Source: Capsulimonadaceae bacterium
GTDB lineage: Bacteria; Armatimonadota; Armatimonadia; Armatimonadales; Capsulimonadaceae
Direction: 5' to 3'
DNA: 64,000 nucleotides
Assembly (NCBI GenBank): GCA_965215505.1
Contig: OZ244065.1
Coordinates: 3,808,001-3,872,000, forward strand
Shown here: positions 19,804 to 23,279 of the stretch, one piece after another
Numbering within the stretch: position 1 is the first letter of the stretch
Layout of the letters: every line of letters starts with the position of its first letter
Position numbers and translations under genes: made by a program
Notes under the pieces: model-generated
Seen by the model: only the letters and a program-made list of their open reading frames with translations
Databases searched by the model: none
Told to the model about the DNA's origin: nothing

Positions 19804-20073
19804 ATGAAATCCTCAACGGAAATAGACATCAACCAGCGCGTTTTCGCGCTTCAGCATTTGGACTCGGGCGAATACATCTGCCTGCTGCAAGAGGGCACCG
19901 ACTACCTCGCCTGTTTCTCCGACGGCGACAGCGCCTTGGAGTTTCGCTCCTCGCTCGGCTTGCAGGAGCATGTGGACCTGCGCGCCATGACCCTGGACCG
20001 CAGCCCCTTCAAGCACTTCTGGCTGGACGGCGAGAACGTGGACATCCGCAAGGAGCAGGAAGTCGCGAACTAG
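19804..20073 (+). CDS. Small hypothetical protein (89 aa)
   Basis: AAGGT SD-like sequence, host-like codon usage, globular composition; family not recognised. Confidence 0.7.
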   Translation: MKSSTEIDINQRVFALQHLDSGEYICLLQEGTDYLACFSDGDSALEFRSSLGLQEHVDLRAMTLDRSPFKHFWLDGENVDIRKEQEVAN

Positions 20074-20179: not shown

Positions 20180-20204
20180 GTAGGGGCGGGGTCCCCCGCC
20201 CTCT
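20180..20204 (+). repeat. GTAG-type REP
   Basis: GTAGGGGCGGGGTCCCCCGCCCT; same family at 28373, 30734, 33075, 43387 and 45252. Confidence 0.75.
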
Positions 20205-21805
20205 TATCGCCCCGCCCCTTCATTGACCCGCCCGCCCCCCAATGCCTCCAAAAACGCCTCCCCTTCCAACTCCTGCACCTCGTACCGCTCCCCCTCCTCG
20301 GCCAGCGGCCCCAGCGCCTGCGTCGTCTCCAGGCCAAGCGTCACTTCTTTGACGAACGCCGCTCCCAGCGCCGCTTGCAGCCGCGCGCCGTCGTGGTGGA
20401 AATACTCCTGCAACAGCGGCACGACCCGCCGATACCAGGCGAAACGCAGGTCGTCCGCCGTCCTGACCCCCATCAGGTAGCTGTGCCCGATCCGGTGATC
20501 CGGGTCCAGCAGGGCCGCCACGCGCCTGTTCAGCCGCGTCAGCAGCTCCTGCAAGTTGACCCCGGCTACGTCCTCAGACAGCAACTCCGGCTTTGGCGGC
20601 ATCTCGACGAACGTGAACCGCCGCCGCAGGGCAAGGTCCAGCAGGGCGATGGAGCGGTCCGCCGTATTCATCGTGCCCAGGATCGTCAGGTTGGCGGGGA
20701 CGCCGAACCGCTCCCCCGAGTACGGCAGCGTCACCCGCACCTCGTTCGGCATTCCCAGCCGCTTGTCGTCCTCGATCAGCGTGATTAGTTCCCCTAACAC
20801 CTTCGCGATGTTCGCCCGGTTGATCTCGTCAATGATGATCAGGTACTCCTTGTCCGGGTTCCCCTCCGCCGTCCGGCAGGCCCGCTTGAACACGCCGTCC
20901 ACGACCGCGTAGCTCACCTGCCCCTCATGGATGACCGGCTTGACCCCTTCCACGAACTCCTCATAGGCGAATGACTGATGAAACGTCACCATTTCCACCT
21001 TGTCCGCGTCGGTGAACGCCTTGGCGAACTGCGTCACCAGCCACGTCTTGCCCGTGCCGGGCGGTCCGTAGAGGAGGATGTTCTTGGTGCGCTCCGCCAT
21101 TCGGAGCAGCGGCTTGACGGCTTCCGGTACAAAGCGCTTCTGGGCGACACTTTTAGGATGTTGGGTCCCATCTTTTTCTTCTAAACCCATCAAGTTCAGG
21201 TGGTGGTAAGTCGAGCGAGGTACACGAACGGCTTGGTCGCTCATGGGCCTGCTTATTAGCTCGTTGTTATGATCTAGCCTCGTTACCAAAGTGCTGTAGT
21301 CAGCATCGTATTCCACATAAGTCGCTGGTTTCCAGACAGCACGATTCCATGACTTGATCTCGCTGGTAGCGACCATGCATTGTACTTGATTACCTTGACT
21401 CACCAAGATGTTTGCCGCTTCTGCCTGTTTGGGGTGTAGAGGCATATAGTCCTCTCCAAGTTCCCAGGTCGTTTCGGCGGGCGTTGGATTAGCTTTTGCT
21501 ACGCGGGCTTCACCTCGCTTGGTGATCTTATAGAAGCCATGACCTGACACGCTTGTCGGGTACAACTCACCTTTCTTCACTAGTTCATGCCTAACAAGTT
21601 GCACGTCGTTTTTCCACCGGCTGTCACGCTGGCTGCCCTGTTTAACAACGAGTTCTTCCTGTGTCAGTTTGAATAAATCTGCTAATGGCTGATACAAATT
21701 GGATGGTTTGGCCTGCCCACCTTGGCGTATGATCTCTTCGAGCAAGGGCAACTCCATATCCTTACGGTTCGGAAAAGTGAAACTATAGTCAGTAGATTGT
21801 GGCAC
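20204..21805 (-). CDS. mcrB: McrB-family AAA+ GTPase with N-terminal Mrr_N-like winged-helix domain
   Basis: GPPGTGKT, VTFHQSFAYEEFVEG, IIDEINRAN, GTMNTADRS, ALRRRF, IGHSY, PLLQEYF. N-terminus (PLLEEI...LADLFKLT...RWKNDV...GFYKITKRG) resembles Mrr_N. GTG start. Confidence 0.9.
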   Translation of the reverse strand: MPQSTDYSFTFPNRKDMELPLLEEIIRQGGQAKPSNLYQPLADLFKLTQEELVVKQGSQRDSRWKNDVQLVRHELVKKGELYPTSVSGHGFYKITKRGEARVAKANPTPAETTWELGEDYMPLHPKQAEAANILVSQGNQVQCMVATSEIKSWNRAVWKPATYVEYDADYSTLVTRLDHNNELISRPMSDQAVRVPRSTYHHLNLMGLEEKDGTQHPKSVAQKRFVPEAVKPLLRMAERTKNILLYGPPGTGKTWLVTQFAKAFTDADKVEMVTFHQSFAYEEFVEGVKPVIHEGQVSYAVVDGVFKRACRTAEGNPDKEYLIIIDEINRANIAKVLGELITLIEDDKRLGMPNEVRVTLPYSGERFGVPANLTILGTMNTADRSIALLDLALRRRFTFVEMPPKPELLSEDVAGVNLQELLTRLNRRVAALLDPDHRIGHSYLMGVRTADDLRFAWYRRVVPLLQEYFHHDGARLQAALGAAFVKEVTLGLETTQALGPLAEEGERYEVQELEGEAFLEALGGGRVNEGAGR

Positions 21806-21807
21806 TG

Positions 21808-23097
21808 TCAGATTACCCCCTGAAAAACATCTTTCAGTTCCTCAATCAACTGCCGGATACCTTCCGGTTTGCCTAGCTCGACGCGCAAACCCAGCGTGGC
21901 GGCCTGGACCGTGCCGCCGCCTTCCAGGTCGAATCGGAGGCGCAGGGGTTCGGCCATGCCTGCGGTCTGGGGGTAGAGGAGCAGGACGCGGGGGCAGGCG
22001 TAGCGGCGGGCGTAGGCGTGCATCTGGTACATGTCAGCGGGGGTGATGCCTGATGCGCCGCGCTCGGCGGGGGCGAGGGCTTTGTACTTGGTGTCCAGCA
22101 GGAGCGGGAAAGTGCCGTCAGCGGCGCGCAGGGCGAGGTCGGGTTTCAGGTGGAAGGCGGCGCGGCCTTCGCGGCGGGCGAGGTGCAGTGCGGTCCCCGC
22201 CGATTGAGGGAGCAGGGTGCAGTCGGCCAGCGAGGGCGGCAGTATGGCAGCGCGGTGGCATCGGAGGAAGTTGAAGACGAAGGACTCGAACAGGCGATTC
22301 ATGTCGAAGACGAAGGCGAACGCGTCCCGGTCGCCGCCCGAAAGCTGTAGGGAGCCGCCGTCGAGGAAGAGCCGGGCCAGGGTCAGCAGGGGGGCGTAGG
22401 CGGGGTGCAGGCGCGTCAGGGACACGGCGGACGCCTCGGCGGCGGTGACATTAGGGAGCAGAGTCACCCCGTCCATCCAGGCGCGCAGGGTGGACAGAGC
22501 GCGGCGGTTGTCGGAGTCGCGGGTGAGTGTCCACAGGCGCTCCACGACGAAGCGGAGGATGCGGTTCAGGGGGTTGTCGGGCGTGAACTCATCGTAGGTG
22601 ACGCAGAACCGGTGCCGATGGGCGGGGCGGCGGAGCTGGGCGGTCAGCCGCCACTTGCCGCGCAGGAGGGGCGAGTCGTCGTCTTCGATTGGGATGTAGC
22701 CCCGGACGATGCCGCGCTGCCAGACGTCGGTGAGGTGGGCCGTGAACAGGCGGGTCAGGACCTCGAACCAGTTGGCATGGCGGCGCAGCAGGGGGGCCAG
22801 GGCGTGTTCGCGGATGGGGAGGTCGGCGGCGACGGCCAGCAGGTGGAGCAGGTTCCGGGCGGCCTCATCGGCACTGCACTCCTCGTGCCGGTAGATTTTG
22901 GGCAGGATTTGGATCGTCTCGCGCCCCAGCCGGACGACGCCGACGTACTGAGTCGCCTGCACGGCGGGGGAACCGGTCCGGTCAAGGACGGCCCGCAACA
23001 CATCGTCGCCTCGCTCCCGGTTCAGGCGCTCCAATGAGGCCAGGCGGCGCGGGTCCCAGGGGAAGGGGGCGGTCTTGTTCTCGAAGAGGGTGAGCAT
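21808..23097 (-). CDS. mcrC: McrC-family PD-(D/E)xK nuclease subunit
   Basis: YVGVV...IQILPKI, DNPLNRIL, FDMNRLFESFV, KPDL...LDTKYK, DMYQMHAYA, LLYP. Confidence 0.92.
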   Translation of the reverse strand: MLTLFENKTAPFPWDPRRLASLERLNRERGDDVLRAVLDRTGSPAVQATQYVGVVRLGRETIQILPKIYRHEECSADEAARNLLHLLAVAADLPIREHALAPLLRRHANWFEVLTRLFTAHLTDVWQRGIVRGYIPIEDDDSPLLRGKWRLTAQLRRPAHRHRFCVTYDEFTPDNPLNRILRFVVERLWTLTRDSDNRRALSTLRAWMDGVTLLPNVTAAEASAVSLTRLHPAYAPLLTLARLFLDGGSLQLSGGDRDAFAFVFDMNRLFESFVFNFLRCHRAAILPPSLADCTLLPQSAGTALHLARREGRAAFHLKPDLALRAADGTFPLLLDTKYKALAPAERGASGITPADMYQMHAYARRYACPRVLLLYPQTAGMAEPLRLRFDLEGGGTVQAATLGLRVELGKPEGIRQLIEELKDVFQGVI

Positions 23098-23279
23098 GAT
23101 CCTCTCCCCGGCGCAAGCGCCGACCCTCCCCTCGGAGGGAAGGGTGGGTGAAAGGCGGCTTGTTGGTCTTAACGGAAGCCTTGCCGTGACCGGAGGCCAC
23201 CCGGCATTACAGACCGACCTCTATTTACCCACCCTTCCCTCCGAGGGGAGGGTCGGCGCTTGCGCCGGGGAGAGGATCA
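23097..23279. repeat. MITE-like element with perfect 53-bp terminal inverted repeats
   Basis: 23097-23149 (TGATCCTCTCCCCGGCGCAAGCGCCGACCCTCCCCTCGGAGGGAAGGGTGGGT) is the exact reverse complement of 23227-23279. Confidence 0.92.

Follow-up and report, generated by a model that had tools for sequence, protein, structure and literature searches.

Modularity of the McrB readers, the N-terminal domains by which McrB proteins select their targets, is textbook knowledge, drawn mostly by inference from distant homologs. The locus described here raises the question whether such readers can be seen to change at a single chromosomal site, among close relatives, on a motor that stays in place. It is a mcrC-mcrB gene pair of a Capsulimonadaceae bacterium (assembly GCA_965215505.1), situated in a stretch of 64,000 nucleotides (contig OZ244065.1, positions 3,808,001 to 3,872,000) hereafter called the window, to which all coordinates refer. 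The original prediction, made from the letters of the window, proposed that an AT-rich specificity region covering the start of mcrB had been swapped between two conserved anchors.

Our present results come from this genome (G000, a single contig of 6.18 Mb), from the set of 24 genomes of its genus and from more distant homologs. They indicate that mcrC and the GTPase part of mcrB are very probably a resident chassis, in which a reader block of foreign composition has repeatedly been replaced between two fixed junctions. Comparison of sequences strongly supports the swap, and every part of the observation that led to it is confirmed.

The mcrC-mcrB gene pair

The features of the locus, all on the minus strand, are as follows.

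21808-23097, minus strand: mcrC, 429 amino acids, McrC family with a PF10117/DUF2357 region and a PD-(D/E)xK-type nuclease motif
20204-21805, minus strand: mcrB-like gene, 533 amino acids, GTG start
20204-21130, minus strand: AAA+ GTPase chassis of McrB, amino acids 226-533 and stop codon
21131-21825, minus strand: low-GC cassette, very probably exchanged, running from ~6 codons before the end of mcrC across the 2-nt spacer and through McrB codons 1-225
21500-21751, minus strand: Mrr_N winged-helix domain, amino acids 19-102
21140-21499, minus strand: domain X, amino acids 103-222, a predicted alpha/beta domain between Mrr_N and GTPase
21826-21900, minus strand: left homology arm, the conserved and somewhat AT-richer 3' end of mcrC (…ELGKPEGIRQLIEE…)

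Both genes are co-directional and the nuclease gene comes first (C-to-B order). The TGA stop codon of mcrC (21810-21808) is followed by CA and then by the GTG codon of mcrB at 21805; because this gap amounts to 2 nt, the two genes are probably translationally coupled. Open reading frames (ORFs) and family matches agree with the order and spacing given in the original prediction.

The McrC protein matches PF10117 over amino acids 46-376 (expect value, E, 7e-68; 229.4 bits against a cut-off of 23.9) and the NCBIfam McrC model NF007277 with E 1.5e-21 (76.9 bits). Its translation contains the pattern KPD...LLLDTKYK, in which KPD and DTK are the putative PD-(D/E)xK catalytic residues. The mcrB product matches AAA_5 over amino acids 242-397 (E 1.1e-25) and the model of E. 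coli McrB, NF008457, over amino acids 224-477 (E 9.9e-47; 159.7 bits). Its GTPase part shows GPPGTGKT (Walker A), IIIDEINR (Walker B) and MNTADRS, the last with NTAD as the NxxD-type signature that is named for McrB-type GTPases in the 2024 census of McrBC systems by Bell et al. (PMC11090510). With a McrB-type GTPase, a McrC partner and adjacent co-directional genes, the pair belongs, by its sequence, to the McrBC-type (type IV) restriction systems. Both products score far below the NCBI equivalog cut-offs (338 for NF007277 and 637 for NF008457), so that they count as members of the family but not as orthologs of the E. coli proteins.

In front of the GTPase, a Mrr_N-like winged helix followed by about 110 unrecognised amino acids had been proposed. 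The first is matched by Mrr_N (PF14338) at amino acids 19-102, with E 1.1e-9 and 38.8 bits against a gathering cut-off of 29.5. For the second, amino acids 103-222 and here called domain X, Pfam yields nothing at E<=0.01.

A reader block of foreign composition

The GC content of positions 21131-21825 is 0.488, compared with 0.665 for the genome, which places it in the lowest 0.52% of 61,771 genomic segments of 700 bp (mean 0.665, standard deviation 0.047). Within the gene pair, GC is 0.489 at 21130-21880, 0.651 in the rest of mcrB and 0.698 in the rest of mcrC; at a resolution of 200 nt it lies between 0.47 and 0.515 at 21100-21899 and between 0.585 and 0.715 elsewhere in both genes. GC at third codon positions (GC3) is 0.87 in mcrC, 0.52 in McrB codons 1-225, Mrr_N and X alike, and 0.88 in the GTPase part. 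The AT-rich stretch at 21130-21880, originally noticed by counting letters, is real and is marked by a sharp shift in both GC and GC3; the hand counts themselves (29/60 at 21721-21780 and 43/60 at 22021-22080) are exact. The cassette is compositionally foreign, and the body of mcrC and the GTPase part are host-like.

A drop of this kind recurs in the genus. In all seven genus loci with an intact pair the GC3 of the N-terminal region is below that of both flanks, by 0.11-0.43, and the last 90 nt of mcrC have a GC content of 0.46-0.58 in every locus, against 0.60-0.70 in the mcrC body.

Two junctions shared by the genus loci

Intact mcrC-mcrB pairs occupy the orthologous site in 7 of the 24 genus genomes (G000, G003, G007, G012, G015, G018 and G023), always in the C-to-B order and with an intergenic gap of -8 to +6 nt. 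The locus of G000 was used as reference in blastn comparisons with each of the six relatives. DNA identity of 74-86% runs through mcrC and ends at 21824-21842 in all six; homology is back at 21118-21131, again in all six, and goes on through the GTPase part, in G012 into the neighbouring genes. Alignments of the seven loci place the limits likewise: conservation of the DNA ends about ten codons ahead of the mcrC stop and sets in again at the codons that encode PEAVKPLL. Since these breakpoints match the GC shift in all six relatives, the AT-rich block is best read as an exchanged cassette between two conserved anchors.

The N-terminal regions of the seven loci range from 109 to 591 amino acids and are of unrelated types. 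Mrr_N followed by X (Mrr_N+X) is present in G000 and G003, Mrr_N alone in G018 and G015, while G012, G023 and G007 possess large N-termini (388-591 amino acids) that find no match in the copy of Pfam used. These large N-termini have in common a module of about 200 amino acids (N-module) and a second module with the sequence FWKIAPG…IGW…GDIVVANKG, the latter weakly matching EVE (E 0.04). PF28529 and PF28530 both occur in precomputed Pfam annotations of homologs. The FWKIAPG module appears to correspond to PF28530, because homolog P0022 has PF28530 and this module and lacks the N-module.

Sequence identity among the genus loci is 72-84% for the GTPase parts (74-84% to G000) and 68-81% for McrC; N-termini are 31-58% identical within a type and cannot be aligned between types. 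In the sister species G012, the GTPase is 84% identical to that of G000 and the front end is unrelated. The comparison with homologs called for by the original prediction thus has a clear outcome: the N-terminus varies between conserved flanks at one chromosomal site, homologs do not share one N-terminal region, and the breakpoints sit at the GC shifts.

The front end is combinatorial in homologs outside the seven loci too. Mrr_N occurs together with the PF28530 module in P0022; P0020 and P0036 have the PF28530 module alone, P0037 has the N-module alone, and P0013 and P0016 represent a type beginning with MKHLIISLSWQGDYWQ. Some close relatives (P0029; L051, L053, L054, L055) carry an extra insertion of about 130-220 amino acids just after the Walker A helix of the GTPase, at a position that looks like a second variable slot. 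Insertions inside the McrB GTPase domain are noted in the census as well (PMC11090510).

Different histories of reader and chassis

A maximum-likelihood tree of the genus loci, built on the DNA of mcrC and the GTPase part, was compared with a tree of the neighbouring HAD hydrolase gene and orf89. The former joins G000 (Mrr_N+X) with G012 (large type; support 100/99), G015 (Mrr_N only) with G007 (large type; 91/94), and G003 (Mrr_N+X) with G018 (Mrr_N only; 94/96), G003 and G018 being grouped in turn with G023 (large type) at 100/99. The tree of the neighbouring genes joins G000 and G012 likewise (99/98).

Of 8000 candidates scored in a database search with the GTPase part, 5344 proteins reached E<=1e-60, and the best 120 of these were considered. 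Among the matches listed, 31 besides the window's own protein show at least 69% GTPase identity: nine have Mrr_N only, eleven PF28530 only, one Mrr_N and PF28530, and ten neither, six of these ten being gene calls of at most 383 amino acids. On a wider tree of 28 GTPase parts, the six architecture labels need 17 changes, the minimum being 5; shuffled labels need 15.8 on average, and 188 of 200 shuffles were as low as the observed 17. The starred branches of this tree alone force at least five origins of Mrr_N+X. Sister proteins P0032 (label A) and P0030 (label C), with branch lengths of 0.06 each and support of 99/97, have different front ends. Among the six full-length Mrr_N+X carriers, identity of the cassette (41-78%) does not track identity of the GTPase (72-82%). 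N-terminal architecture does not follow the GTPase tree, and the history of the reader is not that of the chassis.

Probable exchange of the reader cassette, and its alternatives

The proposal that a variable domain was swapped between two conserved anchors is borne out in two ways, by breakpoints at the GC shift in six of six relatives and by architectures uncorrelated with the GTPase tree. By analogy with the mechanism described for McrBC (PMC12707154, PMC2993543), the N-terminus of McrB, i.e. the Mrr_N winged helix and X, would bind the target DNA, the C-terminal AAA+ GTPase would form a hexameric motor and translocate, and McrC would dock into the motor, stimulate GTP hydrolysis and cut DNA with its PD-(D/E)xK site. 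Comparison of the genomes shows the chassis to be long-resident and inherited with the chromosome at a fixed site, with omp179 on one side of mcrC-mcrB and orf89-HAD on the other. The junctions always lie within the conserved terminal codons of mcrC and where the GTPase begins with PEAVKPLL, and the most likely route of exchange would be homologous recombination with incoming DNA of other C-to-B McrCB members, the conserved segments acting as arms. Such an exchange is predicted to alter the choice of foreign DNA that the system attacks.

Several points weigh against repeated exchange, or against the details given to it. The closest cassette (P0015) is only 66% identical and no donor was found, plasmid and phage collections being blank; a near-identical cassette on two diverged chassis was not found among the loci compared, and the exchange is read from comparison. 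Low-GC3 N-termini in all seven loci could reflect a standing compositional or selective bias and not recent import. The wider tree holds 28 of the 32 best matches, the other four having been left out as N-terminally cut calls, and four of its labels are indirect, those of G000, G003/P0032 and G018/P0025 being taken from the DNA loci and that of P0029 from a residual X tail. Finally, the structural model of X has moderate confidence, and fold searches with it were filled by winged-helix matches to amino acids 7-102.

The alternative that survives best, although it is improbable, is turnover of the whole operon, in which complete McrCB variants would be inserted independently at one hotspot. In its favour, the site is variable: the 15 other genus loci examined have no McrB or McrC match beside orf89, and ORFs at several of these sites match other families; G022 possesses only a deletion remnant of mcrCB, and just 7 of the 24 genomes have an intact pair. 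However, mcrC and the GTPase flank are host-like in GC3 (0.87 and 0.88) and the cassette alone is foreign; the flanks and the housekeeping genes next to them both yield trees that unite G000 and G012 (100/99 and 99/98); and DNA homology of 74-86% continues unbroken through mcrC and the GTPase part, in G012 into the neighbours, and breaks at the cassette only.

Very fast evolution of the N-terminus in place, under phage-driven diversifying selection and without any recombination, is slightly harder to accept. It could account for N-termini of the same architecture being far more diverged than the GTPase (41% against 74% identity between G000 and G003), but N-termini of 109-591 amino acids with unrelated sequence and domains are beyond the reach of point substitution. 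GC3 makes a step of 0.35 at both junctions, and architecture is random on the GTPase tree, the sisters P0032 and P0030 included. For changes between architecture types, evolution in place is already contradicted.

We give just as little credit to the possibility that the AT-rich stretch is untranslated and that the true product is a reader-less motor of 328 amino acids, similar to McrB-S and starting at M206. Exactly this product, and not the frame of 533 amino acids, is the database gene call for the present mcrB (P0006), and E. coli mcrB makes the truncated McrB-S from an internal start (PMC2993543). Yet a frame open over 225 codons would arise by chance in stop-prone DNA of the composition of the cassette with a probability of about 9e-6, and Mrr_N scores above its gathering cut-off within this very stretch. 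Moreover, the N-terminal 224 amino acids are 64-66% identical to three full-length database proteins (P0015, P0019 and P0033), an identity that covers the AT-rich part, and M206 is not conserved in these three. Gene calls of two further loci are cut at the N-terminus in the same way, to 383 instead of 530 amino acids in G003 (P0032) and to 293 instead of 413 in G018 (P0025), which suggests an artefact of gene callers at the composition shift.

Programmed switching of readers within a strain, whether by phase variation of the kind known from Type I hsdS loci or by a shufflon, has the cassette-like layout as its sole support and can practically be dismissed. When the cassette was searched with blastn and tblastn in the complete genome of 6.18 Mb, it matched only itself. 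It is not enclosed by inverted repeats, the best pair that reaches into it being 29 nt long with 72% identity, and there is no recombinase gene among the ORFs listed beside mcrC-mcrB. Repeated exchange of the reader block thus stays our preferred explanation, and the word reprogrammable, applied to the module in the original prediction, is appropriate on the evolutionary time scale; it fails within a strain, where the genome has a single copy of the cassette and no flanking inverted repeats.

Regarding the translation start, the next in-frame ATG (M17) corresponds to the called start of homolog P0033. A sigma-70-like site (CTGACA, 18 nt, TATAGT; 10 of 12 positions) is present at 21782-21811 on the minus strand and overlaps the mcrC stop and the mcrB start; with one site found against 0.5 expected at the mcrC/mcrB junction, it is not significant. 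A convincing terminator was not found. In high-GC genomes the AT-rich reader is lost in gene calls, as here; such domains are therefore under-represented in protein databases, and in searches of cluster representatives they appear to be orphans.

Domain X

Besides lacking a Pfam match, X (amino acids 103-222) has none in NCBIfam, PADLOC or PDB sequences. When Pfam was searched at E<=5, the sole match was TreTu_C (E 0.019), below its cut-off; profile searches of PDB sequences with alignments of 2 and 6 rows gave best E values of 0.37 and 0.9. A word-based search with amino acids 100-222 gave no match. A profile search of 1.84 billion cluster representatives returned the fragment P0002 and three repeat proteins sharing a short TRLDFSNE-like motif, which we take as chance similarity.

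X is nevertheless not an orphan, an idea rejected once full-length carriers (P0015, P0019, P0033 and P0021) were found. A profile search of longer proteins recovered five carriers, these four and the cut G003 call P0032. Seven carriers are known in total (G000, G003/P0032, the fragment P0002, P0015, P0019, P0033 and P0021); in all of them X is part of a McrB GTPase fusion, and wherever the N-terminus is intact, Mrr_N precedes X. P0029, in addition, keeps a 92%-identical copy of the X tail of the window. We infer that the early blank searches were due to clustering at 50% identity on the common GTPase and to N-terminally cut gene calls.

Other collections yielded little. X was not found in the ESM atlas or in plasmid or phage collections. 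Among species-representative genome contigs only that of G003 was returned, and 400 other genomes of the phylum, a set without G003, gave nothing in a six-frame profile search. Of two scans of JGI metagenome contigs, one was blank and the other gave a single match, a dehydrogenase with the common sequence QIQCMVAT, which is spurious.

An AlphaFold2 model that includes X, computed from an alignment of five rows, has predicted local distance difference test (pLDDT) values of 60-76 over amino acids 120-205 and suggests the topology strand-helix-five strands-helix; amino acids 1-235 modelled from the single sequence reach pLDDT 31. The top Foldseek rows for the Mrr_N+X model are regulators combining a winged helix-turn-helix with a WYL barrel of the Sm/SH3-like kind (CapW/BrxR/DriD), 7tb6 with E 2.3e-3, probability 0.77, template modelling score 0.2 and root-mean-square deviation 13; no WYL match was obtained from Pfam at E<=5. 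Profile-profile comparison of X with the large N-termini gives a probability of 0.3%. An insert in G023 (L024, McrB amino acids ~213-268) was considered as a homolog of X and not accepted, with E 0.001 over 41 amino acids and 7 bits by hidden Markov model. Its resemblance to the start of X (GNGIPCMVSIGEF compared with GNQVQCMVATSEI) is too weak for homology.

Gene order

To the order of genes the original prediction had ascribed a role in exchange, in that it places the variable domain between two conserved anchors. We surveyed 301 genomes of the phylum, counting a McrC as paired if its strand also had a match to the GTPase no more than 4 kb away. PF10117 occurs at 59 places in 47 of these genomes, and the McrB model matches in 44 genomes. 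Pairs were formed at 46 places, 41 of them B-to-C and 5 C-to-B, and 13 places are unpaired. The C-to-B loci, G000 and four loci in three other families, are those most like the locus studied here. McrB is upstream "in most cases" also according to the census (PMC11090510). Frames of McrB in the B-to-C systems of the phylum range from 287 to 1076 amino acids, so the reversed order is not necessary for diversity of readers.

A bolder interpretation, which we regard as less likely than not, is that C-to-B McrCB forms a dedicated "reader-acceptor" chassis. With mcrC in the first position, its own homology arms would bracket the reader slot, and readers (Mrr_N, X, the PF28530 module, the N-module of about 200 amino acids and others) would be swapped between lineages or recombined as modules until they carry no phylogenetic signal; X would represent an unseen fold for reading modified DNA, working together with the winged helix.

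The chromosomal site

The neighbourhood of the pair is syntenic in the genus: serA, omp, omp, mcrC-mcrB, orf89, a HAD hydrolase gene and copA. The order serA-omp-omp-mcrC-mcrB-orf89-HAD is seen in G000, G003, G012, G018 and G023, and partially in G015 and G007. The small gene orf89 (19804-20073, plus strand, 89 amino acids, without family match) is convergent with mcrB and belongs to the core of the genus, with copies at 72-99% identity in 23 of 24 genomes.

In the 15 McrCB-less loci the spacing between omp179 and orf89 is 66-656 bp in eight and about 0.9-1.3 kb in five; in the remaining two, omp179 was not found within 1.5 kb of orf89. Other cargo is present between the two genes in several of them (L029, L033-L035, L043, L046, L048). 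It includes an MmeI-like type IIG enzyme in G004, a pair of an XRE HTH protein and an M78/IrrE peptidase with GC 0.47 in G009, an AraC regulator in G019 (a similar ORF of 309 amino acids occurs in G020), an esterase in G011 and a DUF6640 protein in G014. The omp179-orf89 site is thus a variable slot, filled in part by defence genes.

On the other side of the pair, a 183-bp element resembling miniature inverted repeat transposable elements lies at 23097-23279, with terminal inverted repeats of 56 nt (98% complementary). It fills precisely the interval from the stop of omp179 to the start of mcrC. In the genome it has 74 blastn matches, 16 of at least 150 nt, counted on both strands, and the stretch is without homology in the sister genome G012.

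Comparison with known systems

The present system is like EcoKMcrBC of E. coli K-12 in having the same two components and a specificity domain at the N-terminus of McrB. It differs in the order of genes, C-to-B here and B-to-C in E. coli, and in the reader, which is Mrr_N+X here and DUF3578 in E. coli. The principle of exchanging N-terminal readers on a conserved GTPase and nuclease is shared with the McrB homologs of Thermococcus gammatolerans (YTH-like reader), Staphylothermus marinus (PUA/EVE-like) and LlaJI.R1 (B3-like), reviewed in PMC12707154. These alternative readers come from distant organisms, whereas the exchange described here concerns one orthologous locus within a genus and has its junctions mapped. 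Mrr_N is listed by Bell et al. among the domains commonly fused to McrB GTPases (PMC11090510). A reader combining a winged helix with X is not known to have been characterised. The consulted passages of that census do not describe a C-to-B subfamily, a junction-mapped exchange of cassettes or domain X, and those of the reviews on McrB readers likewise contain neither this subfamily, nor X, nor a junction-mapped exchange at an orthologous McrBC locus, a statement on which the supplements may bear.

Mrr, a type IV endonuclease, shares the Mrr_N winged helix (PF14338). In that enzyme a PD-(D/E)xK nuclease follows the winged helix without an intervening domain. In the present system X links the winged helix to a GTPase motor, and the nuclease resides on a separate subunit.

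The closest parallel to the exchange itself is "domain movement" in the specificity genes of Type I and Type III restriction-modification systems, whose recognition domains are moved by recombination in conserved flanks (PMC3467074). Recognition domains exchanged via conserved flanking sequence are common to both. Type I and III systems are protected by methylation and belong to another enzyme class, the present one being, by analogy, modification-dependent; and unlike theirs, one arm here is the 3' end of a gene and the other lies where the conserved domain of the following gene begins.

The locus therefore offers a junction-mapped natural example of what had been deduced from distant homologs: one site and one chassis with at least three unrelated front ends within a genus, while the six architectures of 28 close homologs are randomly scattered over the tree of the motor. 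The two natural junctions suggest where chimeras that retarget a type IV enzyme could be built, and the loci represent a natural set of chimeras for testing what each reader recognises. In sum, this McrCB pair is a known kind of system, and what it adds to the systems compared above is a well-documented case of very probable reader exchange at an orthologous locus.

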